Below, one piece after another: positions 5,484-53,070 of a stretch of 57,844 bases of DNA (the first letter of the stretch is position 1; every line of letters begins with the position of its first letter). The DNA comes from Chitinophaga pinensis (GTDB taxonomy: Bacteria > Bacteroidota > Bacteroidia > UKL13-3): assembly GCA_945873755.1 (NCBI GenBank), contig CAMCEM010000004.1:1-57844 (forward strand). The letters run 5' to 3'. The notes beneath the pieces were generated by a model. The model was not told the origin of the DNA. It was given only the letters and a program-made list of their open reading frames with translations, and did not search any database. The translations under genes were made by a program, and so were the position numbers.

Positions 5484-5533
5484 TTGAGATTAGTTTTGGG
5501 AGATGTTTGTTTTTAATTTTTTTTTAAAAGCAA

Positions 5534-16107: not shown

Positions 16108-16111
16108 TATA

Positions 16112-16693
16112 TTATTTAATTTTATCACTCTCCCACTGCGCTGCAACATTACTCAATTCATTGAACCATTCTGTTCCAAATTTTCTAATTAAAGGTATTT
16201 TTAAAAACTGGAATACTGCTAATTTATGTTCATCGCCAAGTTTACAAGCAGGTTTACAAATATCCCATTTATGGTAATTAACTGCATCGTAGTTGCCTAC
16301 TTTACTAATTCTAATTGGATATAAGTGGCACGACAAAGGCTTTTGAATACTTGATTTACCTGCTTTTGAAGCCTGTTCTATACCACATTTTAAAGTTCCA
16401 TCGCTTTCTTTAATTGAAAAATTACATGCCCCTGATGGAAGACAAGTTGTAACTAAATCGCCATCGATGTCTTTTTCCCAAATTCCTTTTTTATTTATTT
16501 CATTAATCGATTCAGCACTTAAGAAAGGTAAAATATTTGAAAGTTCTGCTTCTATGGTTTCAATTTCTTCCTCTGTTAAAGGTGCACCAAAATCGCCTTC
16601 AATACAGCAAGCACCTTTGCAAGCAGACAAATTGCAAATAAAATTTTTTTCTAAAATATCCTCCGAAATGATTGTATTGTCAAGTAATATCAT
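16112..16693 (-). CDS. DUF3109-like cysteine-rich protein
   Basis: 193 aa; CNLSACKGACCIEGDFGAPLTEEE plus further Cys pairs. Its stop lies 4 nt upstream of the ABC ATPase start. Confidence 0.6.
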   Translation of the reverse strand: MILLDNTIISEDILEKNFICNLSACKGACCIEGDFGAPLTEEEIETIEAELSNILPFLSAESINEINKKGIWEKDIDGDLVTTCLPSGACNFSIKESDGTLKCGIEQASKAGKSSIQKPLSCHLYPIRISKVGNYDAVNYHKWDICKPACKLGDEHKLAVFQFLKIPLIRKFGTEWFNELSNVAAQWESDKIK

Positions 16694-20733: not shown

Positions 20734-20924
20734 ATTCTCTTCAAATATATTGATTGGCTTCGGTAAAAAAAATGAATCCTAAATCATTATACGTTATTAC
20801 CCCTTTTAACAACCATTATTTTGCCACATCCCAACAACTATCAGAATTCACAGAAAACAAAGATTTACTTTAACACTTTGCGCTGTTTTATTCCCCACAG
20901 ATTAAGCTTACTACTCAAGCGCCA

Positions 20925-20956
20925 TTGTTGGTGTTTAAGCGAAGCGTCACCAACAA
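20925..20956. repeat. hairpin repeat family C, copy 1 (TTGTTGGTG-N14-CACCAACAA)
   Basis: ttgttggtgtttaagcgaagcgtcaccaacaa. A second copy lies at 29951..29983. Confidence 0.8.
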
Positions 20957-21284
20957 CTTTGCCACAGATTACAAAGAAAAAAAAGCCCCCCGAAGAAGCT
21001 TTAGTAAATACTTTTCCCGAATACTGTCCGTTGTTGAATCCACTGACTAACAAAAGCTATCTAAATTGTTGGTTATAGCATTTTTTTCTTCTTTCTTTTT
21101 CCATTGCTACTTCGACTCCGCTCAGTATAAATTCCAAAGAAACAAAAAAGCTAGACCATCAAAAGCTACCTCCCCGCTAGGCTTGAAGCACGGCCCGCTT
21201 GATGGTCAGGCCAACGCTCGCCACATTTTCATCAATTTAGTAAATAATTGGCATTTGAATTTTTATTTATAGCTTTTTAAAAAA

Positions 21285-21348
21285 GTGCGGGAACAATTCC
21301 CCCTTGTGAATTGGACTTGTGCGATAGCGAAGGGGGTTGGGGGATGTT
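21285..21348 (+). repeat. GC-rich repeat family A, solitary copy
   Basis: gtgcgggaacaattcccccttgtg...gcgaagggggttgggggatgtt aligns with the units at 29641..29702 and 29780..29841. It has an internal CCCCCTT/AAGGGGG stem. Confidence 0.8.
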
Positions 21349-21690
21349 TTGAAATGCCTGTTTTCCACCATTGTTGTTGTTTTAAAAAAGCTACCATTTA
21401 CTTTTTTACTTAATCAACTAATTATTAGAAAAAAAACAACATAGATTCATAGATTACATAGTTTAAACGCTACGTTTTCTATTTTTCTATGTGGTTCAAG
21501 TTTTTTAAACAAGGTCACATAGCATTGCAATATCATTTTATATTGATTTATGGTTGGTGTATCATCATCCTTAGGTATGTAAGAACTTGATAAGAATATT
21601 TTTTTTCAAAAGCATTCAACTGACAACTATCAACAAGCAACTATCAAGTAAAAAATTATAATTGCATTTAACTTAAAAATTACTAACATT

Positions 21691-22938
21691 ATGGCTATTA
21701 TAAAACCTTTTGCAGCATTGCGTCCAGCTAAAGATAAAGTTGCGCAAGTTTCGGCTCCAAGTTACGATAGTAGTTTGCGTGAACTTTCAACACATGAAAT
21801 ATTAAAAAACCCATACAGTTATTTGCATGTGGTAAAGCCTTATTTACACTTTAAAGGTGAAAAGAAAAACCCACTTAAGCATTTCCCTTTGGGCTTGGAA
21901 TATTTGAACAAATTTAAAAGTGATCAGGTTTTAATTAAAGATAAATCGCCATGTTTTTATGTATATAGAATTATAAAAGGCAGTGTGGCTTATACTTCGT
22001 TAATTGCCTCTGCTGCTATTGATGATTATAACAATAATGTAATTTTAAAACACGAAAATACACTTACCGAAAAGCAAAATGAATTGGCCGAACACATTGA
22101 GTTTTATAGTGGGTTAGGAAACCCAGTATTGCTTACTTACCCCGACAATGATGACATAGAAGAGGTAATTAACAGAACTATTTTAGGTCATGCTCCTGAA
22201 TATAATTTTATTAGTCAAGACCAATTGAAACATAATTTATGGCCTATAAGCAATGAAGCTGATTTGCTTAAAATAGAAAATGCTTTTGCAGCAATTGATA
22301 AATTATACATAGCCGATGGGCACCACAGAAGTGCTGGCTGCGCTACTTATACTGAAACCATGCGAGCTAAATATCCTAATTACAATGGCAGCGAACTATT
22401 TAATTTTTATCCTGTTTGTTTAATTCCTTTTAACAAATTATACATTTACGAATACCACAGATTAATTAAAGACGAAGTTATTGTAAACAGTGAAGATTTT
22501 TTATCGAAATTGAGTGCCTTTTTTAATATTTACCCAAGTGGACACATACCAATTCAGCCATTAAAAAATCGTGAGTTTGGCATTTATTTTAACAACGATG
22601 CATTTGTTATAAATTTAAAACCTGAATTTGAAAGTAAATTAAAAGGAACTTTAGAATTGCTTGATGTTAGCATTGTGGAAGAATTTATTCTAAAACGTAT
22701 TTTTAATATTACAGATAGTAAAACTGATAAACGCTTGAGCTTTTTGGATGGCAGCAGGGGTTTATTACCGTTACAAAGCGCTGTTGATAGTGGCGATTTT
22801 GATTTGGCAATTACTTTGTTTCCAACAAGCATAGCAGAGGTAAAGCAAATAGCAGATGAACAATTAATAATGCCTCCAAAATCGACATGGATAGAACCTA
22901 AAATAAGAACTGGATTGATTATTTATGAAACTATTTAA
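21691..22938 (+). CDS. DUF1015 family protein
   Basis: 415 aa; N-terminal MAIIKPFAALRP...SAPSYD and LYIADGHHRSA are typical of DUF1015. Confidence 0.8.
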   Translation: MAIIKPFAALRPAKDKVAQVSAPSYDSSLRELSTHEILKNPYSYLHVVKPYLHFKGEKKNPLKHFPLGLEYLNKFKSDQVLIKDKSPCFYVYRIIKGSVAYTSLIASAAIDDYNNNVILKHENTLTEKQNELAEHIEFYSGLGNPVLLTYPDNDDIEEVINRTILGHAPEYNFISQDQLKHNLWPISNEADLLKIENAFAAIDKLYIADGHHRSAGCATYTETMRAKYPNYNGSELFNFYPVCLIPFNKLYIYEYHRLIKDEVIVNSEDFLSKLSAFFNIYPSGHIPIQPLKNREFGIYFNNDAFVINLKPEFESKLKGTLELLDVSIVEEFILKRIFNITDSKTDKRLSFLDGSRGLLPLQSAVDSGDFDLAITLFPTSIAEVKQIADEQLIMPPKSTWIEPKIRTGLIIYETI

Positions 22939-27785: not shown

Positions 27786-29456
27786 ATGAAAAAAATAAAA
27801 TTAATAATCATTTTAGCATTTGCTATTTCATTCAACCTATCAGCACAAAATGGAATAGTAGTTGATGATTTTATTTATACCAATAAAAAACCTATTGAAC
27901 GAAAGGTAAGCAGTGTGGTAAGTCATGTAACTGTATTTAATACACAAGCACAAGTTACCCGAACAGCAAAAGTAAACTTAGAAGCTGGTGTGTTCAATAT
28001 TGTTTTCGATAAACTTTCGCCATACATAAACATGAATAGTTTAGAGGTAAAAGCCAATGCAGGATTAACCATTTTGTCTGTAAGTAACAGAAACGATTTT
28101 TTGAATAAAAACGAAAAACCAAACGACATTTTACTGTTAGAAGATTCACTAACAAGCATCAATGCAGCACTTGCCGATTTTAAAGCAGATAAAGAAACCA
28201 TTGTTCACCAAAAAGATTTGATGCTTGCCAACAGAAATGTGGCAAGTAACCAAACTGGAGTAAAAGCCGATGACTTGGATGATTTAATGGAACTTTATAG
28301 AAAAAAGTTAGACGATTTTAAAGTAAATTGGTTTAGGTTAAGTAATTTAGAAACTAAATATTATGGTTATAAGTACCAAGTAGAGCAACAATTAGCAGCT
28401 TACAACAATGGTAAATTGACTTTAAACAATGAGGTTATTTTAACAATAAAAGCTGAAAATAATATTCAAAATGCACAAATAGATTTAAGTTATTTGGTTG
28501 GAAACGTAAGCTGGCAGCCATTTTACGATATTAGAATAAAAGACAATAAAAGCAATGTTCAGTTTTTTTTAAAAGCCAATATTACCCAAAGCACTGGCGA
28601 AGATTGGAACAATGTAAACCTAAAACTAACCACTGCTAACCCTGCTGAAGGTGGCATAAAACCTGAATTGCAAACTAATTGGTTGGGGTTTGGTAAAAAA
28701 ATTATTCCAGCTATGCTTGCTTCAAGAAAATATTTGAGAAATAGAAGCCAACAATCTCTTTCATTAGAAGATACAAAGGAGGAAGAAATGTTAAAAAAAT
28801 TATCAGGAGTTAATTCATCAGAATATAAGTATTTAGATGTTTCTCAAAACATGTTTAATACAGAATTTGAAACTAACATTGCTTATACCATTCCAAGCGA
28901 TAACCAAAACCACCAAGTGGATTTGACCAGTTTTGCTCAAAGTGCTATTTATGGTTATTCGGTAGTGCCAAAATTAAACAAAGAAGTGTTTGTAACTGCG
29001 CAAGTTTTAGCCAACGATTTAATCAATCAAATTAGCGGAGAAGCCAATGTGTATTATGATGGCACATTTACCGGAAAAACATTTATTAGTCCAACAGCCA
29101 ACGATACTTTATTGCTTACTTTAGGAAAAGACAAACGCATACAAGTAGAAAGAATTAAGCTGAAAGATTTTAGTTCTAAATCATTATTTGGCTCTACAAA
29201 AAAGGAACAAACTACTTATGAAATAAAGGTAAAAAACACACATAAAGACACCATAACTTTAACCATTGAAGATCAAATTCCAGTATCGAACAACAGCGAA
29301 ATAGAAGTGAAATTATTGGAATACCAAGGCGCTACCTACGATGTAAATACAGGCAAATTAACTTGGAAAATGGAATTGAAAGCCGATGAAAGTAAATCTG
29401 TAAAATTTAGTTTTGAAGTAAAGCATCCAAAAGACAAACAGTTAACGGGATATTAG
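27786..29456 (+). CDS. DUF4139/DUF4140 (MuiA-like) secreted protein
   Basis: 556 aa with a signal peptide. VTVFNTQAQVTRTAKVNLEAGVFNIVFDKLSPYINMNSLEV matches the DUF4140 N-terminus. Confidence 0.7.
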   Translation: MKKIKLIIILAFAISFNLSAQNGIVVDDFIYTNKKPIERKVSSVVSHVTVFNTQAQVTRTAKVNLEAGVFNIVFDKLSPYINMNSLEVKANAGLTILSVSNRNDFLNKNEKPNDILLLEDSLTSINAALADFKADKETIVHQKDLMLANRNVASNQTGVKADDLDDLMELYRKKLDDFKVNWFRLSNLETKYYGYKYQVEQQLAAYNNGKLTLNNEVILTIKAENNIQNAQIDLSYLVGNVSWQPFYDIRIKDNKSNVQFFLKANITQSTGEDWNNVNLKLTTANPAEGGIKPELQTNWLGFGKKIIPAMLASRKYLRNRSQQSLSLEDTKEEEMLKKLSGVNSSEYKYLDVSQNMFNTEFETNIAYTIPSDNQNHQVDLTSFAQSAIYGYSVVPKLNKEVFVTAQVLANDLINQISGEANVYYDGTFTGKTFISPTANDTLLLTLGKDKRIQVERIKLKDFSSKSLFGSTKKEQTTYEIKVKNTHKDTITLTIEDQIPVSNNSEIEVKLLEYQGATYDVNTGKLTWKMELKADESKSVKFSFEVKHPKDKQLTGY

Positions 29457-29493
29457 CAATTGGCATCTTGCATTAGGCAAATAATCTTCAAAA

Positions 29494-29900
29494 GTCGCGG
29501 TAGCAATTCCCTCTTGAGCGCTTACTTTACGAGGAAAAGGATGCCGAAAGTTTTCGGTATGGGGATGTTTTTTTAACTGGCATAAGGCTGCTGACAACTA
29601 GCAAATGATCAATTGCCGTTAGGCCAACGGAAAGAAAAAGGTGCGGGAAATATTCCCCCTTGTGCGCTGAAATTGTTTGGGGAAGGGGGTTAGTGGGATG
29701 TTTTTTTAACAGGCATAAAGCTGCTGACAACTAGCAAATGATCAATTGCCGTTAGGCTTTAGCCAACGGAAAGAAAAAGGTGCGGGAAATATTCCCCCTT
29801 GTGCGCTGGAATTGTGTGGCGAAGGGGGTTAGGGGGATGTTATTTGAACTTGCAAAAGGCTGCTGGCAACTAGCTTCTGGCTTTTAGCAAATGATTGAAT
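29494..29900 (+). repeat. tandem array, about 2.5-3 units with a 139-147 bp period (family A core plus linker)
   Basis: Family A cores lie at 29494..29568 (degenerate), 29641..29702 and 29780..29841. They are separated by near-identical linkers tttttaacNggcataaRgctgctgacaactagcaaatgatcaattgccgttagg...gccaacggaaagaaaaag. Confidence 0.85.
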
Positions 29901-29950
29901 GAGGAAAGAAAGCAACTCGCATTATGTAATTTGCAATATGTAATTTCGCC

Positions 29951-29983
29951 CTTGTTGGTGTTTAGCAAAGCGTCACCAACAAG
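29951..29983. repeat. hairpin repeat family C, copy 2
   Basis: cttgttggtgtttagcaaagcgtcaccaacaag; a 10 bp stem. Homologous to 20925..20956. Confidence 0.8.
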
Positions 29984-30152
29984 AACACATGTAGTTATTT
30001 TAAAACAAATGAATATAATTGTAAAAGCAAAAACGCTAACTAGTTACGCAAAGCCAATTAAATCTGAGTGGATTGGGGGAGGTTTTATTTAAAAACATTC
30101 AGAGATAAGTAAGTTAGGTGCAACCATGTGAATCAGATAGTCATAATATATA

Positions 30153-30716
30153 ATGAATAAAACAATCTTTATAATATTTTACTTCTTAACCGTAATGCCA
30201 ATATACGGTCAAAATCAATTTCCTAAATTTACCTATCAGTCAGTTTATGGGGACACCATTTCAAATAAAACATTATTAAATAAATCAACATTAATTGTTG
30301 TGGGACACATATCATGTCCAGGAATGTTATTTTTAATTAGAGACATTCAGAAAGCTAACATAGATACAGTTCAAATTATTCTATTGTTAGAGAACACAAA
30401 GGAGCAAGTTCTAGCATTCAACTTAAATGACACCAATGACATTTGGGGTCTTCAAAGACACAGTTTCAGAATTAAGCCAATAGAATTTCCTACAGTAACT
30501 TTCTGTGATAAAGAAAAACTTGGTAAAAAACATGACGGAACTTTTATAATAAAATCACAGTGTAATAAACTAAAAATTAAATATGGAGCATTTGAGGTTC
30601 CAAAAATATATGCTATTAATAACTACGGACAAATTATTAGCAAGCAGACAGGTTGGTACTATAAGTTGACAGATCCGAAAAAAAACATTTTGCAACTTTT
30701 TAAAACAAAACAATGA
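30153..30716 (+). CDS. hypothetical secreted protein
   Basis: 187 aa; signal peptide MNKTIFIIFYFLTVMPIYGQ; ends in TGA. No firm domain call. Confidence 0.45.
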   Translation: MNKTIFIIFYFLTVMPIYGQNQFPKFTYQSVYGDTISNKTLLNKSTLIVVGHISCPGMLFLIRDIQKANIDTVQIILLLENTKEQVLAFNLNDTNDIWGLQRHSFRIKPIEFPTVTFCDKEKLGKKHDGTFIIKSQCNKLKIKYGAFEVPKIYAINNYGQIISKQTGWYYKLTDPKKNILQLFKTKQ

Positions 30717-33913: not shown

Positions 33914-35932
33914 TTAAAATAACAAGATTTTTTTAACAATTACACCTTCATTATTTGAAATATTTAAAATATAAATGCCTTTATTTTGATTGGTTAAATC
34001 AATTTTAAAATCAGTTCTATTTTTTTCTATTTTTAAATTTAAAACCTCTTTTCCATTCAGTTCAGTTATTGAAACCAATGATTCAAAGCTTTGATTGTTA
34101 TAAACTTTTACATTAAATATTCCATTTGATGGATTTGGAAATATTTCTAAATCTAAGTTGTTTTTTGAAACCTTACTTATTGAATTGGTAGTATGGTTAA
34201 TTTTAACAAAACCAGCTCCACCAGTGTTATAATAACTTCCCGAAGGAGTAGTTTCTAATTTAATAGCTTTAACTGCATAGGTAAAAGTACCATTATTAAA
34301 GTTTTGATTGTCTACAAAAAAAGTATCGCTTACAGTATTTACATTTAGTTTACTGTAAATATTATTTATTGTATCCACCCTATAAATGGCGTATCCATCT
34401 ATATTTCCTTGAACTGAGCTCCAGTTTAAAAACACGTAATTAGATTTACTTTCAGCATTTACTTGATTTACTGTTCCTATGTTTCTCATTTTTAAAGTAG
34501 GATCGCCCATTAAAGCAATATGAACAGAATTACTAGAGCTATTGAAGCCACCATTAAAATAAAAATTGGTATTGTTTTGAGTAATTTTAGCACCATAACC
34601 AATATTCATTCCTAAACCCATGTGGTGAACAAACCATTTTGGAATTCCGCCCCAAAAACTAGCCAAAGAAGATTGAGCCAATGGCGCTTTTAAAAAATTA
34701 TTTGCTATATCCCAATCGCCAAAATAACTACCTGATAGTATAGTGAAGATATTATTAAACGAATCGTTTACAAAATTTGAAGTACTACCAATACCATTAC
34801 AAGAAGTATAACTACCTGCACCACAGCCATAACTCCACAAATACGATCCGTTTTTTTGAGAAACCATATAATCCCTATTGTTAAAAATACTATCACTTTT
34901 TATTAAAGTTGAAAAATTATTGTAACCAGTTGATGAAAGGTTTAATGAAGTAAAATTATCATCAATCAAAGCCCTTTCGATTACTTGTGTTTTTCCAGTT
35001 CGCCAATTATTATTTCTGTTTAAATAATTTATTGTTAAAAGCGTATCCGACTTATTAAAGCTACTCATTCCAAAAAAATCGATTCTTCCAAGTTCTAAAT
35101 CAATATAGTTTGGAATTTTAGTTTGGTCAAATTTCCCATCATCAGGTAAATTGTGATGTCTTGTTTGAGTTCCTGTAGTACAAGTTACATTATTATCTGT
35201 CCAGCCAGTATTTATCATATCGGCATAATACACATCGGCAGGCCAAGCACCGGTATGGTTTCCGCTTCCTTCCACATGTCCATCAGGCGGTGGTGCTTCG
35301 CCTAATGATGAAAAAAAGCCAGAGTATGGAACAGGTACATGCCCAATAATAAATAACGACTTCACTTTTCTGTTTAAACTTGTGTATGTTGATGTTATTC
35401 TATTTTTAATATTAATTACATTTTCTTTTCTTCCGGCATACACTACAACTACTTTATAACCTTCATTTTTTAAATTATTAACTAATTGTTGAATTTGAGC
35501 AGCAACAGGAATAATAAAATTGCTATCAATTAATAAAATTAAACCATCAAAAACCCTCGGCTCTTTTAGTTTATTACCTGCATAAATGTATCCTAAACCA
35601 TCAGTAGCATTGCTTGCGCTTATTTTGGCTACGGTGTATTCAAAAGCTTCACCTTCTTTAACCAAGCTATCAGTAAATCCGTTTGTGTTACCAGCAACAG
35701 TGGCATATGGTAAAGTTCCCCATTCTTCTGTACTTAAGGAAGCTCTTTTATAAATTTCGTACCTGCCGTTAAAATTTAATTGTGGCCAATTTATTCTAAT
35801 TCCATTTGCGCCAATAGCAGTTGAATTAATCATTAAAGCCTGATTTTTGCCTGTTTGACTGTAACTTGAAATACTAAAAGTTAGTAGAATTAAAAGTAAA
35901 AATTTGTGTTTCATTTTATTTTTTTTTGTCAA
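33914..35932 (-). CDS. large secreted protein with a T9SS C-terminal sorting domain
   Basis: 672 aa with a signal peptide. C-terminus IFPNPSNGIFNVKV...KGIYILNISN...KKILLF. The body domain was not recognised. Confidence 0.7.
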   Translation of the reverse strand: MTKKNKMKHKFLLLILLTFSISSYSQTGKNQALMINSTAIGANGIRINWPQLNFNGRYEIYKRASLSTEEWGTLPYATVAGNTNGFTDSLVKEGEAFEYTVAKISASNATDGLGYIYAGNKLKEPRVFDGLILLIDSNFIIPVAAQIQQLVNNLKNEGYKVVVVYAGRKENVINIKNRITSTYTSLNRKVKSLFIIGHVPVPYSGFFSSLGEAPPPDGHVEGSGNHTGAWPADVYYADMINTGWTDNNVTCTTGTQTRHHNLPDDGKFDQTKIPNYIDLELGRIDFFGMSSFNKSDTLLTINYLNRNNNWRTGKTQVIERALIDDNFTSLNLSSTGYNNFSTLIKSDSIFNNRDYMVSQKNGSYLWSYGCGAGSYTSCNGIGSTSNFVNDSFNNIFTILSGSYFGDWDIANNFLKAPLAQSSLASFWGGIPKWFVHHMGLGMNIGYGAKITQNNTNFYFNGGFNSSSNSVHIALMGDPTLKMRNIGTVNQVNAESKSNYVFLNWSSVQGNIDGYAIYRVDTINNIYSKLNVNTVSDTFFVDNQNFNNGTFTYAVKAIKLETTPSGSYYNTGGAGFVKINHTTNSISKVSKNNLDLEIFPNPSNGIFNVKVYNNQSFESLVSITELNGKEVLNLKIEKNRTDFKIDLTNQNKGIYILNISNNEGVIVKKILLF

Positions 35933-36039
35933 ATATATAAATCTTTACATAAGTTGATATTAAATATATTATTTAATAAAAAACAATTTTTGCCTAATTT
36001 GAGTTAGATTGCAAATTCATATTTAATATAAATAATACA

Positions 36040-36234
36040 ATGCAAGAAGGAACAGTTAAGTTTTTTGATGAAACAAAAGGCTTTGGATTTATTACAACAG
36101 AAGACGGTGGTGAAGATATTTTCGTACATTCAACGGGCTTAATCGACAGAATAAAAGATAACGATAAAGTACAATTTGAAACAGAAAGAGGAAAAAAAGG
36201 TATTAACGCTGTACAAGTTCAAACAGTTAGATAA
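36040..36234 (+). CDS. cold-shock domain protein (copy 1)
   Basis: 64 aa; GTVKFFDETKGFGFI (RNP1) and DIFVH (RNP2). Confidence 0.9.
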   Translation: MQEGTVKFFDETKGFGFITTEDGGEDIFVHSTGLIDRIKDNDKVQFETERGKKGINAVQVQTVR

Positions 36235-36244
36235 TGCTCTAAAT

Positions 36245-36279
36245 AAAAAAAAAGCAAGTATTTTACTTGCTTTTTTTTT
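36245..36279 (+). terminator. intrinsic terminator of csp copy 1
   Basis: gcaagta / tacttgc stem followed by a T9 run. Confidence 0.7.
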
Positions 36280-36331
36280 ATTTCAAATATTTTAACATAC
36301 TTTGCGAACTCAAAATTAATAAAATAATACA

Positions 36332-36526
36332 ATGCAAGAAGGAACAGTGAAGTTTTTTAATGAAACAAAAGGCTTCGGATTTATTTCACCAGCAGGTGGA
36401 GGAGAAGACATTTTCGTACATTCATCAGGTTTAATAGACAGGATTAGAGAAAACGACAAAGTAGAATTTGAAACTGAAAGAGGAAAAAAAGGTATCAATG
36501 CTGTACAAGTAAAGGTAGCTAGATAA
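36332..36526 (+). CDS. cold-shock domain protein (copy 2)
   Basis: 64 aa and highly similar to copy 1, with identical aataatacaatgcaagaaggaacagt around the start codon. Confidence 0.9.
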   Translation: MQEGTVKFFNETKGFGFISPAGGGEDIFVHSSGLIDRIRENDKVEFETERGKKGINAVQVKVAR

Positions 36527-36548
36527 TATTCTAATTTTAATTCAATTT

Positions 36549-36582
36549 AAAAGCTGATAAAGAAATTTATCAGCTTTTTTTT
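36549..36582 (+). terminator. intrinsic terminator of csp copy 2
   Basis: aaaagctgataaa / tttatcagctttt stem followed by a T-run. Confidence 0.75.
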
Positions 36583-36593
36583 GTATTGTATGA

Positions 36594-36671
36594 GTTCCTT
36601 CTTCCGCTTTAGCGGAATCAGGATGACGTTCCCGCACATTCTGTAACAAACGTCATGCTGAGGAACGAAGC
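36594..36671 (+). repeat. structured repeat family F, copy 1 (downstream flank of the GIY-YIG gene)
   Basis: gttccttc...tcaggatgacgttcccgcacatt, followed by its inverted partner aacgtcatgctgaggaac. A nested ttccgc/gcggaa hairpin is present. Confidence 0.8.
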
Positions 36672-36688
36672 ATCTTTAAGAGAAAAGC

Positions 36689-36976
36689 TTACATGCTCAA
36701 AAATTTCCATTCAGCATTGAATGAATTGATTAAGTCAATTTTCTTTTTTCTTGTCCAACCCTTTAATTCTTTTTCTCTTTTAATAGCTTGGTTTATATCT
36801 ATAAACTCTTCAAAATAAACTAGGTTATAACAATTATACTTTCCTGCAAAACTACTTTTAATTGTCTTAGCATCTGTTTCATGTTCGTTCATTCGCCTTA
36901 CAATATCATTAGTTACACCAATGTACAAAACAGATTTATTTGGATTAGTTGTTATATAAACATAAGATTTTTGCAT
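36689..36976 (-). CDS. small GIY-YIG (URI-domain) nuclease family protein
   Basis: 95 aa; YVYITTN...VLYIGVTNDIVRRMNEH...NLVYFEEF...AIKREKELKGW. Confidence 0.85.
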   Translation of the reverse strand: MQKSYVYITTNPNKSVLYIGVTNDIVRRMNEHETDAKTIKSSFAGKYNCYNLVYFEEFIDINQAIKREKELKGWTRKKKIDLINSFNAEWKFLSM

Positions 36977-36995
36977 TTCAATATTTACTTATAAA

Positions 36996-37033
36996 GTTCC
37001 TTCGCTACACTCAGGATGACGTTCCCGCACATT
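36996..37033 (+). repeat. repeat family F, copy 2 (upstream flank of the GIY-YIG gene)
   Basis: gttccttcgctacactcaggatgacgttcccgcacatt. It shares the exact 24-mer tcaggatgacgttcccgcacatt with 36618..36640 (also 24 nt), in the same orientation. Confidence 0.85.
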
Positions 37034-37070
37034 TTTAAGTCAAAAAGTAGCAAGAAATTTCTTTAAAATT

Positions 37071-39731
37071 CTACCAAAGTTCATATGTTTTTTGTCCCAA
37101 CAACTTTGCTTTCTCTATTGCAGCTTGTAAGCCATTTACATCGTTACCACCAGCAGTGGCATAAAATGGTTGTCCACCGCCACCACCTTTAATTTCTTTG
37201 GCCAATTCTTTTACAATATTTCCTGCATGCAATCCTTTTTCTTTAACTAAGTTATCGCTAATGATAACGCTCAACATGGGTTTTTCGTTTAACACACAAC
37301 CCAACACACAGAATAAATTTTCTACTTCGGTTTTTAGTTGAAAAGAAAGGTTTTTCAATTGTTCGGCATTGGATATAGTTATTTGTTGAATTAAAACATT
37401 AACACCATTCGAATTTCGAATTTCGGATTTAATATTTGTTTTGATTGCAATTGTTTTTTCATTTTCAAATACCTCTAACTTTTTTAACAAATCAGCTTTT
37501 TCACCGATTAATTGTTCTACAGATTTTAAAATATCTTTTGAGCTAAAAGTCTTTTCTAAACTTTCAACAGCCAACTGCCATCCATCAACAAGTTCTTGTG
37601 CAGCATCTGCAGTAATGGCTTCAATCCTGCGCACTCCAGCAGCCACCGCAGCTTCACTTACTATTTTAAATAATCCAATTTGACCAGTAGCTTTTACATG
37701 CGTTCCTCCGCAAAGTTCACGACTGAAATGTTCATCAAAAGTGATAACACGAACTGAATCGCCATATTTTTCTCCAAAAAGCATCATGGCACCCAATGTT
37801 TTTGCTTCTTCTATTGGAACACTTCTGCGTTCATCTAAACTAATATTTTCACGTATTTTTTGATTTACAATTTGCTCTACTTTGGCTATCTCTTCTTTAG
37901 TCATGGCCGAAAAATGTGAAAAGTCGAAACGTAAATTTCCGTTGTTAACCAAACTTCCTTTTTGTGCCACATGCGTTCCTAAAACTTGACGTAAAGCCGC
38001 ATGCAATAAATGCGTTGCTGAGTGGTTATTTTCAGTTAATTTACGTTTGGCAGTATCAACCGAAGCAGTAAAAATGGCTTCCACATTTTCGGGCAATGAT
38101 TCAGTAAAATGAATGATTAAATTGTTCTCTTTTTTGGTATCAATAATTTCTACTTTTTCGTTGATATTTCCAATAAAACCTGTATCGCCAATTTGCCCAC
38201 CACCTTCAGGATAAAAAGGTGTTTGGTTAAATACCAATTGGTAACTTTCTTTACCTTTGGCTTTTACTTTTCGGTATTTTGTAATTTGAATTTCAGCTTC
38301 AGTTTGATCGTAACCAAGAAAAATGGTTTGGGTTTGTTGTGTAGACGTTGCATGCAACGTCTCTAACCAATCATCTGTGGTTAATTCGGTTGCTTTTCGT
38401 GAACGTGCTTTTTGGTTTTGTAATTCGATTTCAAAACCTGCTTCATCTACAACTAAATTTTTTTCTGAAGCAATTAATTTTGTTAAATCTAGTGGAAAAC
38501 CAAAAGTATCATACAATTCAAAAACAATTTTACCATCTAAATTAGTAATATTATCTAATTTACGAATTCCATTTTCCAACGTCCTCAAAAAACTAACTTC
38601 TTCTTCTCTGATCACCTTACTTACAAAATCTTTTTGAGCAAATAATTCAGGGAAAACGTTTTTAAAACTATCGGCAATTAGCAAAGCCAATTGACACATA
38701 AAAGGTTCTTTAATGCCTAAAAACTGGAATTGGTAACGAACTGCTCTGCGTAAAATTCTGCGTATTACATAACCAGCACCATTATTACTTGGCAATTGTC
38801 CATCGGCAATGGCAAAACTAATGGCGCGAATATGATCGGCCATTACACGCATGGCTATATCTTGTCTGCGCTCGACATGACTAACGTTTTCATCCTCTGA
38901 AGCAGAAAAATTGTATTTAAATCCAGAATATTTTTCAATGAATTGAATGGTTGGTACAAAAACATCGGTATCGTAGTTACTGGTTTTCCCTTCAATGGCA
39001 CGCACCAAACGTTCAAAACCCATTCCTGTATCTACGTGTTGCGCAGGTAATTTTTCTAAGCTTCCATCTGTTTTGCGGTTAAATTCCATGAACACATTGT
39101 TCCAAATTTCGATCACTTGCGGGTGGTCGTTATTTACCAATATTTTTCCATCAACCAAAGCACGTTCAGCGTCTGGTCGTAAGTCAATATGAATTTCAGA
39201 GCACGGGCCACAAGGGCCAGTGTCGCCCATTTCCCAAAAATTATCTTTTTTGTTTCCGTTTAAAATTCGGTCTTCGGCAATGTATAATTTCCAATTATCA
39301 AATGCTTCTTGGTCAAAGGCTAAACCTTCTTTGGCATCGCCTTCAAAAACAGTTACGTAAAGTCTATCTTTTGGAAGTTTATATACATCCACCAATAATT
39401 CCCAAGCCCATTCAATGGCTTCTTTTTTAAAGTAATCGCCAAAGCTCCAATTGCCCAACATTTCAAACATGGTATGGTGATAGGTGTCCACGCCAACTTC
39501 TTCTAAATCGTTGTGCTTTCCACTTACTCGCAAACATTTTTGAGTATCAACTACACGTTTGTATTTAGGAGTTTCATTGCCCAAAAACCAATCTTTAAAT
39601 TGATTCATTCCTGCGTTGGTAAACATTAAAGTAGGGTCGTTTTTAACAACTATGGGTGCCGAAGGAACTCTGGTATGTCCTTTACTTTCAAAAAAACTTA
39701 AAAATTGTTCGCGTATATCTGCTGAAGTCAT
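37071..39731 (-). CDS. alaS: alanine--tRNA ligase
   Basis: 886 aa; [28 protein letters not shown], editing-domain HSATHLLH, C-terminal GGGGGQP. Confidence 0.95.
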
Positions 39732-40939: not shown

Positions 40940-41566
40940 ATGAAAAAGTTACTAATCATTTTTACAATTATTTTAATTGGCAAATTTTCGATAGCAGAAA
41001 ATTGCAAAGTTGAGTTTAATTTTCTACTAAAAAACAAAAATTGGAAACCAACTATTTCATCAATAGTAAATGGAATAATTTATGTAGATGTAGAAAGTGA
41101 AAACGACAGTTTAATAATTCAATTAAATAAAGAAATTAACTGTAATAATACACTTGCAAATGTTTATTTAGATGAAACTAAAGTACCTGTTTCACCAAAA
41201 GGAAATGAAATAAAAACAACTTCAAATGGTGGTTTGTACAAAATTGAAATTATTGGCCCAGGTAGTAGTGAGTGGTTTAAAATATTTGTAAGAGTTACTA
41301 AACCAACTGTTGTAAAAAACACTGTTCCATTAGTTTTAGTTCATATTTACCCAAACCCTGCAACAACTAATTTTTTTGTAGAAAATGCCGCACAAGTAGA
41401 AACAATAAAAATATATGACATAACTGGAGCTGTGGTTTTAGTAGTTGAAAATTCTTTTAGAAAAGATATTTTAGATATTGACATTGCTAAATTACCAGCA
41501 GGTCAGTATTTTTTAGCTTTACAAAACGATAAAACAAAAATTACAAAAAAGTTAGTGAAATTATAA
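40940..41566 (+). CDS. small secreted protein with a T9SS C-terminal sorting domain
   Basis: 208 aa with a signal peptide. IYPNPATTNFFVEN...AGQYFLALQN...KKLVKL. Confidence 0.7.
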   Translation: MKKLLIIFTIILIGKFSIAENCKVEFNFLLKNKNWKPTISSIVNGIIYVDVESENDSLIIQLNKEINCNNTLANVYLDETKVPVSPKGNEIKTTSNGGLYKIEIIGPGSSEWFKIFVRVTKPTVVKNTVPLVLVHIYPNPATTNFFVENAAQVETIKIYDITGAVVLVVENSFRKDILDIDIAKLPAGQYFLALQNDKTKITKKLVKL

Positions 41567-43446: not shown

Positions 43447-44067
43447 TTACTTTAACCTATAAGCCAAACCAATAACCCAAGTATTATTTAACCCTCCGGT
43501 ATTGTTACTTATGTTTAATATACCAGTTTGATATTGCCCATATAGCGCCCATTTTTTATAACATATAGTAGCACTTAAAATTCCGCCCATATCCAAATTG
43601 TTATATTTATGCTCTTGTTCGTGGCTCAGGTAATAATGCTGTGGGTTTGTAAATGCTGAAAACAAATAACCGCCATAAGCACCGGCACCTAATAATATAT
43701 TAGTGGGGCCGCTAAATTGGTGATTATAATTTAATACCACAGGCAATTGCACATAATGCAAATACACATTTTCAGTGTAGGAAAGAACTTTTTCGCCTAC
43801 TGCATTTGTGTAAATTACCTCTCTGGCTGAACCTTTGCGCACATAACTTAAACCAACATGGGTGTAAAATTTAGCATTCCATTTAGTTTGTAAATGAGTA
43901 CCCATTTCAAGCCCTGTTAAGGCTTGGTTAAATATGCTATTATTACTTAAATTATTTTGGGTAACACCCATCTTTACAAAAAGATGGGTGTTTTTAAAAA
44001 GGCTGTCAAGCTTTTGCGCTTGGGCTTGCATGGCAATAAAGCAGCTAAGTATAAATAAGGGTTTCAT
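43447..44067 (-). CDS. small outer-membrane beta-barrel (porin-family) protein
   Basis: 206 aa; signal peptide ...AMQAQAQ. Alternating aromatic/Gly strands; C-terminal ...VIGLAYRLK. Confidence 0.6.
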   Translation of the reverse strand: MKPLFILSCFIAMQAQAQKLDSLFKNTHLFVKMGVTQNNLSNNSIFNQALTGLEMGTHLQTKWNAKFYTHVGLSYVRKGSAREVIYTNAVGEKVLSYTENVYLHYVQLPVVLNYNHQFSGPTNILLGAGAYGGYLFSAFTNPQHYYLSHEQEHKYNNLDMGGILSATICYKKWALYGQYQTGILNISNNTGGLNNTWVIGLAYRLK

Positions 44068-44068
44068 G

Positions 44069-46249
44069 CTATTTGGCTATAATAAGTTTTTTGGTTTCGG
44101 AGTAACCATTACTAGCATTTAATGTAACTAAATATACTCCAGCAGCCAAATCTTGTGTGTTAATAGTTTCTTGATTATTACCTGTAATATTAACACTTTT
44201 AACAAAAGTACCTGCTAAATTATAAATATTAATACTTTCACCTATTGCTCCGTTTAATTGGAATAGTACAGTTGCAATATCATTGGCAGGGTTAGGGTAA
44301 ATTTTAAAGGTGATTTGATGCTGTTGTTGCTTGTTTTTTAATTCGTTTAGATTTTGTGGTGGAGAAGTTTTAGAAAGTGAAATATTTCCTTTATACTTAC
44401 TATTTAATCCGCTACAAAATGTTCTTATTTCGTCTTCATTTGTTACCAAGCCATGATTATCATAACTGCAAGGCGGGTTATCAGCTAAATCAAAAACTTG
44501 AAGTGTTACTTCTCCTCCAATAGGTATTATTTCGTATTCGGTAGAAATTGTTATTTCTTCTCCAGCTTCGTAAATACTAGAGCCATTAAGAATATTCATA
44601 TTACCATCTTTAAATGTAATTAATTTTTTTGCGTATGTATTAGTAGTAGATGTAATTGATACAGAATTAAAATTTAATTCTGGTTGATGAATTGATGCCA
44701 TGGTGTAACGGTATGCACTATAACCTTGAGTAAAGGTATTGAAATTATACTCTTCACTACCACCAATAATACTAGATTCGATTGGATAGGTAAACATGTG
44801 AACCGCTCTGTTTGGACTTTCATCTTTACCCAACTCTTTCGACTCTAAAACTAACATAACGCATAATTCAAGCTCTTTAGGTAAAATAACATTACTTGTT
44901 CTTACAACCGCAGGCTCAAAATCTATAGTATTAGTTGAAATAGAAGTAAAATCAATTAATGTAACCAATTTTTCAATACATGATGCTGGTAAATATGGAG
45001 ATTGCAAATAGTATTCTGTTCCATTTGGCAAATCTTTTGAATGTCTAATTTCCCAATTTAAATTTTCAATGTATTTTGCATTTGATGGTAATTGATGTTT
45101 CATACGCAATGCAAATAATACACGAGTATTATCCATGTTTGGCTTAATGGCAGGGTTTATACTGTATTTAATATCATTTTCTAATCTTAAGCCAATTTCA
45201 TGTCTATCAGTTATTTTTTCTCTATCAATCCCATTATTTTCACCTTCTACCGGCCCTCCGCCTAGCGAAAATACACGTGTATTACTAAATTTATAATAAA
45301 CTTGAATTTTTGGCTTGTAATACAGTGCAAATACACCCAAATGCTCGTTATACAATGGGTATTTGGGGGTGTTAATCAAATCAAATGTGTTAGTATTTAA
45401 ACTACCAGGATTTCCAAATATTGTTCTTTCTACCCTATCATGGTCGGTAAGTGTTCCCTCTATTCTCATTTCACCTTGAATTACGCTTGGCATACCCGGC
45501 ATTTTTGCTTCTTCTTTTAAGCGACTTGCATAATAATCGGTATATTTACCCGCAGCCATACCGCCATAAATAACAGCTTCAAGAATATCTTTACTTTTAG
45601 TAGCTCCCAAGGCTGTTCCACCTATCAATATTGATTTCATTTTAGCAGCTAAAAAGGCTTTGCCACCTGTGGCAATGTATGCCCCTACTGTTAGTGCTGT
45701 GCTCCAAGCTTTTATTTTATCTGCATCTTGCTTTTCCATTTTGTAGGCTTTCATCCGCTTGTCGTAATCGGCTGCTAGAGTGTTTACATTTTTATAAATA
45801 AGTGCCCCAGCCTTTATTTCGTTTATATCGTTTTTATAATCCATAGAACTTAAAAAAGTAGGATCTAGTACAGCAGTGTTTAGGCCTCCCTTTAAATAAT
45901 CAATTGGGGTACTAGTACCAATAAATCTACCATATAGTTTTATGTCTGATGTTTCCACAAATTCTACCAAAACTTCTATTCGGCTATCAAAATCACAAAC
46001 ACAAGGGTCATAAGCCATTTTAAAATCGCCATAAAACCACCTATTATAGGAATTAGGATGTGTGGAACTAGATACCAGCTCGGTTACAGTTGTATATTGA
46101 TCCAAAGCTTGAGCCTTGGCAGTATTGTTGCTAAATGTAATTGCCTTGTTAAAGCCGTCTTGAAATTTCAAAATAACATTGGCTACATCGTAACCTACTA
46201 TATTAGCCATGGTAAACACCCTAAGGGTAGATTCGAATTTATTGTACAA
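44069..46249 (-). CDS. large T9SS-CTD protein lacking its own signal peptide (probable C-terminal part of a split cargo gene)
   Basis: 726 aa with a TTG start in the track. CTD: KIYPNPANDIATV...AGVYLVTLNASNGYSETKKLIIAK. Same frame as 46292..46684, separated only by a TGA and 14 open codons. Confidence 0.7.
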   Translation of the reverse strand: MYNKFESTLRVFTMANIVGYDVANVILKFQDGFNKAITFSNNTAKAQALDQYTTVTELVSSSTHPNSYNRWFYGDFKMAYDPCVCDFDSRIEVLVEFVETSDIKLYGRFIGTSTPIDYLKGGLNTAVLDPTFLSSMDYKNDINEIKAGALIYKNVNTLAADYDKRMKAYKMEKQDADKIKAWSTALTVGAYIATGGKAFLAAKMKSILIGGTALGATKSKDILEAVIYGGMAAGKYTDYYASRLKEEAKMPGMPSVIQGEMRIEGTLTDHDRVERTIFGNPGSLNTNTFDLINTPKYPLYNEHLGVFALYYKPKIQVYYKFSNTRVFSLGGGPVEGENNGIDREKITDRHEIGLRLENDIKYSINPAIKPNMDNTRVLFALRMKHQLPSNAKYIENLNWEIRHSKDLPNGTEYYLQSPYLPASCIEKLVTLIDFTSISTNTIDFEPAVVRTSNVILPKELELCVMLVLESKELGKDESPNRAVHMFTYPIESSIIGGSEEYNFNTFTQGYSAYRYTMASIHQPELNFNSVSITSTTNTYAKKLITFKDGNMNILNGSSIYEAGEEITISTEYEIIPIGGEVTLQVFDLADNPPCSYDNHGLVTNEDEIRTFCSGLNSKYKGNISLSKTSPPQNLNELKNKQQQHQITFKIYPNPANDIATVLFQLNGAIGESINIYNLAGTFVKSVNITGNNQETINTQDLAAGVYLVTLNASNGYSETKKLIIAK

Positions 46250-46291
46250 TATAAAACATGGAAACTGTGGTCTTGATGATTGGTTTACAGG

Positions 46292-46684
46292 TCAATTATC
46301 TAATCCTTTACCAAAACCACGGTATATTAACTCCCAACCGTCTTGTGGGCTAAAATCAATTACTGAAGTATCGTATGGAGAAGGTTTAAACGGAAAAAAA
46401 TTTTGCGCCCAAGGATTAGGAACTGCATTATTTAAGCCATCAAAAGGAAATCCTAAAAAATCGGCTTCTGTTAAAGCAGTTTGTGGGTCATCTACCATCC
46501 AGTTAAATGTATTGCGCATATCTGGTCTTTGGGTATTTTTATTTTGAGGCGGCAAATTGCCCCTTTGGTCTCCAGTATTGGTTGGTGGAGGGTAAGTAGC
46601 AATAATTTCATCATCGCATTGTGCCCACGTGGGGGTATTAATGCCAACTAGTAACATCAATACCAATAATTTTAAATTTTTCAT
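46292..46684 (-). CDS. signal-peptide-bearing 130 aa ORF (probable N-terminal part of the split cargo gene)
   Basis: The start was trimmed to MKNLKLLVLMLLVGINTPTWAQ (ATG at 46684). Ends ...GWELIYRGFGKGLDN-TGA (46294..46292). Confidence 0.6.
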   Translation of the reverse strand: MKNLKLLVLMLLVGINTPTWAQCDDEIIATYPPPTNTGDQRGNLPPQNKNTQRPDMRNTFNWMVDDPQTALTEADFLGFPFDGLNNAVPNPWAQNFFPFKPSPYDTSVIDFSPQDGWELIYRGFGKGLDN

Positions 46685-46700: not shown

Positions 46701-47486
46701 TTATTTAATTTTAGTCCCTCTAAATAGGTGTAAGGTACTGTCTCTACTCCATTGTTTATATTGCACATATATAGAATCTGTATTATCTGGCAGTTTACAA
46801 ATAACATCAAACAAATTGCACCGCGGTGTCATTACGCCATTGGGAAAAAAAGTACGTACATTTACCTCCCAAGGTGTGTATTGTCTATAACCCAATGTCC
46901 CTCCAGATATATAGGCAGTACAATCATTAAAACCAGTAAAAGTATTATACTCAAAGCCACTTGGACTAACGTATTTACTTATTTGAACGGTTACAGGTAG
47001 CTTTTCATTTTTGGTAGATATACCTTTAAATATGCCATACATAGGCATAATATTGGTATCGTTTCTATCCACAAAATATAACATCCTTTCAATTGTGTCT
47101 AACCCATCATCAAATGGAAAACATAATTTGTTTGGTTTTTTTTGTACAATTAGCCTAATGCGCTTTGGTGTTCTGCTTGCACTAAAATCAATGGTAAACG
47201 ATTTGCCATAGCGAGGTTCTGTCTCAGTTCCAATATTCCAAGTGTAGCTTTGTGCCGTAGAATCTAATGCAGTAAATCTTACAGAATTCATAATACTTGT
47301 ATCAGTATCATAATATTTCCAAAAGTTATCTAAACGGGTATCATCCGAATATTCTTCCATAACAAAAGTAGCTTTTATTTCCTTTTGTCCATCGCATGGG
47401 TTTATTGGTGCAATTTCCTCTTTGGGGTTGCAGGCAAAGGGTATAATAAGTAAGGCTGTTATTAGCTTTAAGAATGTATTTTTCAT
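46701..47486 (-). CDS. hypothetical lipoprotein
   Basis: 261 aa; lipobox-like LLIIPFAC. No recognised domain. Confidence 0.55.
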   Translation of the reverse strand: MKNTFLKLITALLIIPFACNPKEEIAPINPCDGQKEIKATFVMEEYSDDTRLDNFWKYYDTDTSIMNSVRFTALDSTAQSYTWNIGTETEPRYGKSFTIDFSASRTPKRIRLIVQKKPNKLCFPFDDGLDTIERMLYFVDRNDTNIMPMYGIFKGISTKNEKLPVTVQISKYVSPSGFEYNTFTGFNDCTAYISGGTLGYRQYTPWEVNVRTFFPNGVMTPRCNLFDVICKLPDNTDSIYVQYKQWSRDSTLHLFRGTKIK

Positions 47487-47496: not shown

Positions 47497-48258
47497 TTAT
47501 TCGGCTAATTTAGCTTTTAAAGCATCAATTTCTTTTTGTTGTTGTAAAATATATAAAGTTAATTCTTCTACTTTTTCTAATAATATTACTTGCATTTCGC
47601 CAACATCAATTTGTTTATTGTTAGCTTCTACTTCGGCTAGGCTTGGCACATTTGGCAAGTGGTGGTATTTTGCTATAAATGTTTCTAATTCTGGTAAAGT
47701 TTTTAGTTTATAATTTTTATCAAAAACATAATCAGCAAATGGGTTTTGAAGTGTAACTATTACTTTTCTGGCAGATAAATAACCGTTGGCATTTACTTTA
47801 AATAAATCTTGTGTGGCATTTTTAAAAAGAATTTGTTCTTCGGTAATGGTAAAAAAGTTGCGGTTATTACTATTTATAAAAAAACCAATAGAAGGGTGAA
47901 TAATACCATTGGTATTTAAAGTCATGCTTCCGGCAGTTTGCACTTTAAAAGCATCTCCAGGGCTTGTTCCAGTTCTTTTTAAGCTTAACGTACCTCCATT
48001 TACAATTAAATTACCATAAACATCTGCTCTTCCATGGTCCACACTAAAGTTTAAATTAAAGGCAGAACCTGTATTTGTAAATACATTAAACATTGCTGGT
48101 TGAGGTGGGCTTCCAGGTAACCCTGATACCACCACTCCAGCAATATTTACTTGGTTACTGGTACTTAAAATACCGCTTGTAGGGCCAGTCCATTGGGCTT
48201 GGCTTTTAAAAATAAAGGTTAATAACCCTAGGCTAAGTAATAATAATTTTCTTTTCAT
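47497..48258 (-). CDS. secreted protein with a tail-fibre-like C-terminal coiled-coil module
   Basis: 253 aa; signal peptide ...FKSQAQ; Gly/Asn-rich beta-strand body. C-terminus FADYVFDKNYKLKTLPELETFIAKYHHLPNVPSLAEVE...LLEKVEELTLYILQQQKEIDALKAKLAE. Confidence 0.55.
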   Translation of the reverse strand: MKRKLLLLSLGLLTFIFKSQAQWTGPTSGILSTSNQVNIAGVVVSGLPGSPPQPAMFNVFTNTGSAFNLNFSVDHGRADVYGNLIVNGGTLSLKRTGTSPGDAFKVQTAGSMTLNTNGIIHPSIGFFINSNNRNFFTITEEQILFKNATQDLFKVNANGYLSARKVIVTLQNPFADYVFDKNYKLKTLPELETFIAKYHHLPNVPSLAEVEANNKQIDVGEMQVILLEKVEELTLYILQQQKEIDALKAKLAE

Positions 48259-51870: not shown

Positions 51871-53070
51871 TTGAAAAAACTTTCTTTAGTTCTTTTATTG
51901 CTTCCTTCTATTCTTTTTAGTCAAGTTGTACCCAAATACGGGAACGATACTTTATTAGACATTGGAACTTGGAATGTTGAATGGTTTGGCGATTTAACAA
52001 ATGGACCTAGCGATGAAACGCAACAGTTTGATAATGTAAAAAATATTATTAATAAAACTGATATTGATATTTGGGGGATTGAAGAAATGAGTAATACTAC
52101 TAGCTTTAACTCTTTAATTTCAGCTTTGCCACTTTACGGTGGAGTTAACAGCACATTTTCGTTAACGCAAAAAATGAGTTTGCTTTATAAAAAAAGTATG
52201 TTTAACTTTATTAGTGCTGAACAAATTTTAACAACAAGTAATTACGACTTTGCAAGCCGACCACCTTTATTGGTAAAGCTTTCAACCAAAGGCGACAGTA
52301 TAAATATTGACACATTATTTATTATAGTTGTTCATTTAAAAGCCAATAGCGAATCGAACTCGACAGGAAAATTAGAATCGTATAATAGAAGAAAAAGAGC
52401 TGCAGATGCTTTAAAGATATATATTGAAAATACTTTATTGAATAAAAAATATATAGTGCTTGGTGATTGGAACGACCGATTGGATTTTTCAATTCATAAT
52501 GGAATTGATACAACGCCTTTTAAACAATTGTTAAATGCCAATTATAATTTTATAACTAAACCATTAGCAGACGCAGGTAAAAGAAGTTACGCCTTCTCTG
52601 ATGGTTTTATAGACCATATAATGGTTTCACCAAGAATTGATTCTTTTTATGTAAAACAAAGTGCAACGGTACTCGATAATTTAGGTCAGTTCGTTAACAA
52701 TTACAGCAGCACTACTTCCGATCATTATCCTGTATTTGGTAGGTTTTTATTCAATAAAATTAAATATACCACTCCTATTGATACTATTCCAACCGATACT
52801 ATAAAAGATACATCAAGAACAAGTATTAGTTATAGTGTAAAAGCTATTAATAATTTTACTGTATATCCAAATCCTTTTGAAAATTATTTTACAATAAAAA
52901 CAGAAAATTTAAATAACGATTTAGTTGAAATTTACTCCCCAATTGGTAATTTGATTTACTCTAAATTATTAAACAAAAATGAAACCGAAATAAATTTAAA
53001 AGATTTTCAAACCGGATTATATATTATTTGTTTTAAAGGAAAATATTATAAAATATTAAAAAACCAATGA
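51871..53070 (+). CDS. endonuclease/exonuclease/phosphatase (EEP) family protein with a T9SS C-terminal sorting domain
   Basis: TTG start and signal peptide. GTWNVEWFG, VVHLKA, LGDWND, SDHYPV. CTD: VYPNPFENYFTIK...GLYIICF. Confidence 0.8.
   Translation: MKKLSLVLLLLPSILFSQVVPKYGNDTLLDIGTWNVEWFGDLTNGPSDETQQFDNVKNIINKTDIDIWGIEEMSNTTSFNSLISALPLYGGVNSTFSLTQKMSLLYKKSMFNFISAEQILTTSNYDFASRPPLLVKLSTKGDSINIDTLFIIVVHLKANSESNSTGKLESYNRRKRAADALKIYIENTLLNKKYIVLGDWNDRLDFSIHNGIDTTPFKQLLNANYNFITKPLADAGKRSYAFSDGFIDHIMVSPRIDSFYVKQSATVLDNLGQFVNNYSSTTSDHYPVFGRFLFNKIKYTTPIDTIPTDTIKDTSRTSISYSVKAINNFTVYPNPFENYFTIKTENLNNDLVEIYSPIGNLIYSKLLNKNETEINLKDFQTGLYIICFKGKYYKILKNQ

Follow-up and report, generated by a model that had tools for sequence, protein, structure and literature searches.

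We describe a reading frame with one internal stop codon on the minus strand of a 57.8-kb stretch of DNA (contig CAMCEM010000004.1, positions 1 to 57,844; the whole stretch is called here the window), which looks like a disrupted gene for a cargo protein of the type IX secretion system (T9SS). From 46684 to 44069 the minus strand reads as a single frame of 872 codons, and the only internal stop is codon 131, a TGA that stands within GAT AAT TGA CCT and thus has C as the next nucleotide. An earlier note, made from the sequence alone, had described a TGA at 46294..46292, 14 open codons after it and a 726-codon open reading frame (ORF) whose TTG start reads as Leu in the continuous frame, and our reading of the sequence gave the same coordinates throughout. 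The parts of the frame are as follows.

46295..46684, minus strand: upstream piece of 130 codons, reading MKNLKLLVLMLLVGINTPTWAQ...GKGLDN, with the signal peptide and the start of the N-terminal domain; the single-ORF homologs P0003-P0007 align with it at their N-termini
46292..46294, minus strand: in-frame TGA, codon 131, the lesion, read from the sequence
46250..46291, minus strand: 14 open codons, PVNQSSRPQFPCFI, from the TGA to the mechanical ORF start; a variable loop that leads into the next conserved strand
44069..46249, minus strand: downstream piece of 726 codons including the stop codon, with the protein body and the sorting domain
46622..46684, minus strand: Sec signal peptide MKNLKLLVLMLLVGINTPTWA, residues 1-21, recognised by inspection of the sequence and by family conservation
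46310..46357, minus strand: family motif DFSPQDGWELIYRGFG, residues 110-125, directly before the stop; G116, W117 and E118 do not vary among 41 sequences
46214..46258, minus strand: family motif CFILYNKFESTLRVF, residues 143-157, directly after the stop; Y147 and N148 are invariant, L146 and R155 at least 90% conserved
45995..46012, minus strand: family signature YDPCVC, residues 225-230; D226, C228 and C230 are invariant
44078..44302, minus strand: T9SS type-A C-terminal sorting domain (CTD), residues 795-869, found with PF18962 and TIGR04183

The TTG at 46249, where the 726-codon ORF mechanically begins, is Leu146 of the continuous frame, and gene callers output two products, P0059 (130 aa) and P0001 (713 aa, from an ATG at 46210). 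The window has a GC content of 30.8%, at which about 8% of random codons would be stops, so the open stretch of 740 codons cannot be ascribed to chance (by our own arithmetic, a probability of about e^-60).

The two ends of the frame carry the two signals that are typical for T9SS cargo. Signal peptidase I would likely cleave between A21 and Q22, with a conserved Cys23 next; Gln22 and Cys23 are conserved in at least 94% of 39 other family members, and the exposure of a Gln by cleavage agrees with the Q-rule of Bacteroidetes (PMC5837995). The sorting domain, which the earlier note had placed at the end of the downstream ORF, is confirmed by PF18962 (56.5 bits, 3.4e-15, cut-off 27) and TIGR04183 (50.1 bits, 1.9e-13, cut-off 23), and is matched also by comparison of the structure model with the CTD structures of RemA and mirolase and by profile comparison with CTD chains of the PDB. 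Both signals are separated by the TGA, and neither of the encoded products has the two together. The statement that the upstream piece has the only Sec signal peptide holds within the ORF pair but not for the surrounding genes, since the ORFs at 47497..48258, 46701..47486 and 43447..44067 have signal-peptide-like or lipoprotein-like N-termini as well. Compared with known type-A cargo (RgpB, RemA, mirolase), the protein shares the Sec signal peptide, the Gln after the cleavage site and a 75-residue Por_Secre_tail scoring above the cut-offs; unlike them, it has a body of about 770 residues that matches no family, and a stop divides its two sorting signals.

The stop is located in a particular place of the protein. 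According to the alignments, it falls in a loop of varying sequence and length, flanked by two blocks that are among the best conserved in the family and have the consensus DFxPEDGWELIxRGFG before the stop (residues 110-125, core DGWELI) and PYFILYNKFxxTLRVF after it (residues 142-157, core FILYNK). The 14-codon segment PVNQSSRPQFPCFI differs in sequence and in length among the homologs. In an AlphaFold2 model (mean pLDDT, the predicted local distance difference test, 68.7; residues 246-410 below 50) strands are placed at residues 117-123, 143-148 and 153-159, and the stop falls between the first two, both of which lie in model blocks with pLDDT of 73-87. Neither Pfam nor NCBIfam matched the body of the query, no Pfam family matched the body across 41 members, and comparison of the body with the PDB, by profile search of the sequences and by Foldseek search of the model, returned nothing past generic beta-sandwiches. 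Residues 301-377 (45553..45784; ...TALTVGAYIATGGKAFLAAKMKSILIGGTALGA...GGMAAGKY...) are rich in Gly and Ala and in part hydrophobic; this helical segment is given four helices by the model, at very low confidence. Distant members conserve it poorly, and it might conceivably be membrane-active.

Homologs of the concatenated product, searched in a collection of 5.8 billion proteins, match over the TGA junction at E = 0. Single ORFs run across the junction in P0003 (59% identity, 96% coverage), P0004 (49% identity, 868 aa), P0005 (41% identity, 871 aa) and both P0006 and P0007 (35% identity, 100% coverage); these homologs, between 59 and 35% identical, have lengths of 847-871 aa and cover 96-100% of the concatenated product. 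P0003 in fact starts ten codons earlier, at an in-frame ATG, and then has a normal signal peptide. When the 130-aa piece was taken as the sole query, it returned the ORF of the window itself and an 89-aa decay remnant, and no stand-alone relatives. A scan of GTDB species genomes gave 189 relatives throughout Bacteroidota, with loci in Tenacibaculum, Flavobacterium and Chitinophaga rupis DSM 21039 among them, and 72 of the loci fetched from these genomes carry the YDPCxC motif. In about 90% of them the frame is open for 200-260 codons upstream of the motif, and therefore the unsplit gene is the norm of the family. Relatives consistently built as two genes with the same boundary, which the earlier note had named as the evidence to the contrary, were looked for and not found. 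From the sequences compared, the locus is a single gene for a T9SS cargo protein of about 870 residues and not a pair of genes. It belongs to an uncharacterised family, widespread in Bacteroidota, with a common layout of a signal peptide, a beta-rich body (DGWELI, FILYNK, YDPCxC) and a type-A CTD.

The closest relative, L001 (Logan SRR24908196), is syntenic and 85% identical in protein; the nearest sequence in the 5.8-billion-protein collection is likewise 85% identical. At the site of the stop it reads GAC AAT GGG CCT, with a Gly codon, against GAT AAT TGA CCT in the window. In homologs further away the residue opposite the TGA is L, S, Y, Q, G, E or N and never Cys; the TGA is absent from the site in all relatives, and sense codons are found throughout. 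The ancestral codon was probably GGA, changed to TGA by a G-to-T transversion, as the sequence comparison suggests; in the window, Gly is encoded most often by GGA and GGT.

Comparison with L001 (Nei-Gojobori method on a DNA-level alignment, omega being the ratio of nonsynonymous to synonymous divergence, dN/dS) demonstrates constraint on either side of the stop. Omega is 0.14 for the 129 codons upstream of the TGA (dS 0.39) and 0.23 for the 724 codons downstream of it (dS 0.37), to be set beside 0.165 for the 261 codons of the flanking lipoprotein gene (dS 0.66) and 0.134 for 125 codons of the flanking outer-membrane barrel gene (dS 1.19); for the 14-codon loop segment it is about 0.8. Insertions and deletions within the gene are all multiples of 3, with the exception of a 1-nt deletion in L001. 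All 54 family-conserved residues (conserved to 85% or more among 39 other members) are kept in the window, 16 before the TGA and 38 after it. With P0003 as the outgroup, 33 lineage-specific amino-acid changes fall to the window and 23 to L001, a difference that is not significant by our own binomial estimate. Since both halves are under purifying selection and all 54 conserved residues are kept, the lesion, if real, is very young. Elsewhere the window consists of intact housekeeping DNA (alaS, priA, miaA, a dbpA-like gene, selD, SulP with a carbonic anhydrase, a TonB receptor and four CTD proteins), and the host genome is not in general decay.

The cargo gene has a conserved partner directly upstream.

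46701..47486, minus strand: putative lipoprotein gene, 261 aa, intact, ...IPFAC/NPKEE..., conserved partner upstream of the cargo gene

This lipoprotein has no Pfam or NCBIfam match. Homologs of it immediately precede the family member in L001 (81% identical), L084 (56%), L002 (55%), L003 (56%) and, in two copies, L035 (about 35%), and the lipoprotein and the cargo thus form a two-gene module conserved across lineages. At the same syntenic position the cargo gene is intact in L002 and L003 and independently broken in L001, L035 and L084-L087. In L001 the 1-nt deletion, CCGCC to CC-CC, lies at about codon 45 (L001 990-1010; about 46550 in the window) and leaves a 63-aa signal-peptide ORF and an 818-aa ORF. 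In L035 a frameshift at about codon 220 leaves ORFs of 232 and 734 aa, and the lipoprotein gene is duplicated, with a truncated extra copy of 335 aa of the family. In L084-L087 (about 5001-5270; P0060) the gene is reduced to an 89-aa remnant covering residues 20-87 only, and the same allele is present on 21 contigs from many samples. Counting the nonsense lesion of the window, four of the six module lineages bear independent lesions of the cargo gene (nonsense, two frameshifts and deletion to a remnant), with the upstream lipoprotein intact and constrained in all four. This recurrence beside a retained partner gene is the one feature of the locus that is slightly out of the ordinary.

In the wider family about 9 of the 72 loci (about 12%) are disrupted. 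Frameshifts are found in L014, L032, L061 and L073, a TGA in L024, a TAA in L064, a TAG together with a TAA in L065, and fragments in L027 and L035. Most of the broken copies carry one lesion, in agreement with a published finding that bacterial genes often have in-frame stops, which do not last long (PMC7918605). The sites and types differ, and none of the lesions is found in the window. That all three stop codons occur among the lesions argues against an effect specific to TGA and points to a dispensable, often multi-copy and decay-prone family. The lesion of the window resembles those of the other broken copies (L001, L035, L014, L024, L032, L061, L064, L065, L073) in that mostly one frame-breaking change is found in a gene that is still recognisable, and differs from them in that the site and type of the change are different in each. 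Counted on the nearest homolog of each, the frameshifts of L061 (about 4096-4123) and L073 (about 4377-4387), unrelated members from GTDB metagenome-assembled genomes, fall at about residue 130 and about residue 160. This is close to the N-terminal loop region that holds the TGA in the window, and may be a coincidence.

Taking these data together, we consider a recent nonsense mutation to be the probable explanation, so that the locus would be a young pseudogene of an uncharacterised and decay-prone T9SS cargo family. The suggestion of the earlier note, a cargo gene of about 870 residues in which a nonsense change happened very recently or a base was miscalled, is thereby sustained by the single-ORF homologs, the Gly of L001, purifying selection on both halves and the lack of further lesions in the gene. 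Similar cases were described as young bacterial pseudogenes, or as genes that keep a dN/dS below 1 despite an in-frame stop (Belinky et al. 2021, PMC7918605), and as 'pseudo-pseudogenes' (PMC9122581). The gene shares with them a single premature stop, constrained flanks and a lesion that is private to one lineage and so short-lived in evolution; residual expression may be supposed here from the UGA-C context.

By this explanation a point mutation, in the simplest case of a Gly codon GGA to TGA, would have turned codon 131, within a variable loop at the protein surface, into a stop. The fragment of 130 residues that ribosomes would release there could be exported and would lack the sorting domain. 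Products begun downstream, at the ATG at 46210 or the TTG at 46249, would lack the signal peptide and a part of the first domain, and presumably could not reach the periplasm, where T9SS cargo is picked up. Secretion by T9SS needs export by Sec and then recognition of the C-terminal domain (PMC11285876). Because no product would have both the signal peptide and the CTD, the gene would be off or, at best, a strong hypomorph. A small amount of the full-length protein may persist by near-cognate readthrough of UGA-C, and any inserted residue should be tolerated, as the loop at the stop is variable.

Several observations weigh against a recent nonsense mutation followed by decay. Signs of relaxed constraint, namely a raised dN/dS, loss of conserved residues or more lesions, were looked for in the gene and not found, and the intact constraint fits a base error or a tolerated read-through stop equally well as a very young lesion. 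Metagenome contigs, scanned for an exact pattern and also at the protein level, gave no second sample of the same species. Besides, L001 and L035, the nearest relatives, bear young-looking lesions of their own in the N-terminal quarter of the gene, a coincidence that would be somewhat surprising for pure neutral decay.

It is unlikely, though worth keeping in mind, that the TGA is an artefact of sequencing, assembly or consensus, or a minority allele chosen by the assembler, in which case the organism, or most of its cells, would have a sense codon (for example GGA) and an intact gene. A lone lesion in an otherwise fully conserved gene (54 of 54 residues kept, low omega on either side) is what such an error would look like, and the contig appears to be the sole record of the species, so that the base is uncorroborated. 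On the other hand, the lesion is a substitution and not a homopolymer indel, and substitutions are less common than homopolymer indels among consensus errors; real lesions of the cargo gene are also frequent in relatives, with the remnant allele on 21 contigs from many samples. We infer that the base call of the TGA is correct. The recurrence of lesions at the module raises another thought, that the break is one of a series of selected inactivations of the cargo and not neutral decay, and this we regard as distinctly unlikely, in spite of the four independently affected lineages with their intact lipoprotein genes. If it were true, the surface protein might be costly under some pressure, for instance as a receptor for phages or predators; alternatively, a secreted toxin could have been lost and its immunity-like lipoprotein partner kept. 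The UGA-C allele could then be a leaky and easily reverted 'off' state. A selected or programmed readthrough, with UGA-C as a throttle of expression and near-cognate decoding (typically by Trp) giving little full-length cargo, appears quite improbable. UGA followed by C is said to be the weakest terminator context in E. coli, though Bacteroidota may behave differently. The loop that holds the stop is variable and should accept any residue, purifying selection persists downstream, and bacteria are reported to have many in-frame stops at a dN/dS below 1, even if these are short-lived (PMC7918605). The TGA is conserved in no relative, however, the closest one having GGG, and for this reason readthrough, which the earlier note had offered among its options, is left unsupported. 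No stimulatory structure was seen downstream of the TGA, as the 76 nt from it fold at a minimum free energy of -3.2 kcal/mol, weaker than 187 of 200 shuffles (z = +1.35). Other broken members use TAA or TAG as often as TGA, and frameshifts too, which speaks for unspecific decay, and a young lesion would predict a low omega anyway.

Two separate functional genes, one for an exported 130-aa protein and another for a protein of 713-726 aa, are hardly credible. The gene callers do output both P0059 and P0001, but the boundary is shared by no relative, the 130-aa query found only its own ORF and the 89-aa decay remnant, and the boundary would separate consecutive predicted strands, both conserved, of one domain. 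The downstream product, with a CTD and without a signal peptide, could not be secreted, given the export requirement for the CTD (PMC11285876). Selenocysteine at the TGA we give practically no chance, in agreement with the lowest rank that it had in the earlier note, and it was rejected. Like bacterial selenoprotein genes such as fdhF, the gene has an in-frame TGA and, in its genome, a selD, which is genuine and lies in the window. Unlike these, it has no selenocysteine insertion sequence (SECIS) hairpin in the 76 nt folded from the TGA, no alignment to Cys or selenocysteine at a position that is unconserved, and no conservation of the TGA itself, which is missing from all relatives. Within the 57.8-kb window there is no selA, no selB and no tRNA-Sec; ARAGORN found no other tRNA there either, and Rfam gave no match over the whole window. 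The selD gene was correctly located by the earlier note.

14441..15496, minus strand: selD, found with NF002098 at 476 bits, in the Cys form (GAGCGCK)

Its neighbours are genes for a thioesterase, an ABC ATPase and a DUF3109 protein, with selA, selB and ybbB not among them, and the start codon of selD shares an ATGA with the stop, TGA, of the ABC-ATPase gene before it (15493..16149, minus strand). As selD serves the synthesis of selenouridine as well as that of selenocysteine (PMC4561486), its presence alone does not imply selenocysteine decoding and is not diagnostic of it. Negligible, too, is the probability that the organism reads TGA as sense (as Gly by code 25 or as Trp by code 4). The nearest homolog does have Gly at the site and the genome is AT-rich, with 30.8% GC, but the lineage is that of Bacteroidota, judged by multiple T9SS sorting domains. 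TGA terminates 5 of the 50 gene-like ORFs of the window, including miaA at its full profile length and the ABC ATPase gene, and no other coding frame in the 57.8 kb is broken by an internal TGA. Both codes were rejected, since TGA works as a terminator in the window and is internal at one locus only.

The result matters mainly for annotation: P0059 and P0001 should become a single entry, marked as a disrupted gene for T9SS cargo. It would be wrong to list a small secreted protein beside a CTD protein without a signal, or to propose the gene as a candidate for a selenoprotein or for recoding. What emerges is a large unnamed family of T9SS cargo with signature motifs, a lipoprotein partner conserved in the clade and an unusually high rate of disruption.

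Some further features of these loci may be mentioned. L035, a metagenome-assembled genome of Bacteroidia, has at 623-6199 a tandem rearrangement of the syntenic locus, in the order lipoprotein, 335-aa family copy, second lipoprotein with an identical N-terminus and frameshifted copy; the CTD of the frameshifted copy is nearly identical to that of the window, and its body only about 25% identical. The 335-aa copy ends with ...IDAMKLQLDNK and in this resembles the end of the tail-fibre-like gene upstream, as if the two had been joined by recombination. The remnant of L084-L087 is followed by a large Sortilin-like T9SS protein. Upstream of the lipoprotein gene in the window a signal-peptide protein of 253 aa is encoded (47497..48258, minus strand); in L002 the gene two upstream of the cargo has a Peptidase_S74 (tail-spike chaperone) domain and does not match this 253-aa protein. 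Three regions of the window of 0.7-1.1 kb each (20733..21691, 29456..30153 and 35932..37071) contain no ORF of at least 120 aa, no tRNA and no Rfam match. Around the cargo gene, a scan for promoters and terminators gave promoter-like sites near the expectation from shuffles and nothing suggestive at the junction, with the sigma-70 consensus, which may not suit the phylum. Four further intact ORFs with a T9SS type-A CTD are found at 17194..18501, 33914..35932, 40940..41566 and 51871..53070 and lend indirect support to the presence of T9SS machinery genes (sprA, porV, porU and others) in the genome; one of the four has a beta-lactamase fold, one belongs to the endonuclease/exonuclease/phosphatase family, and two are without any other domain.

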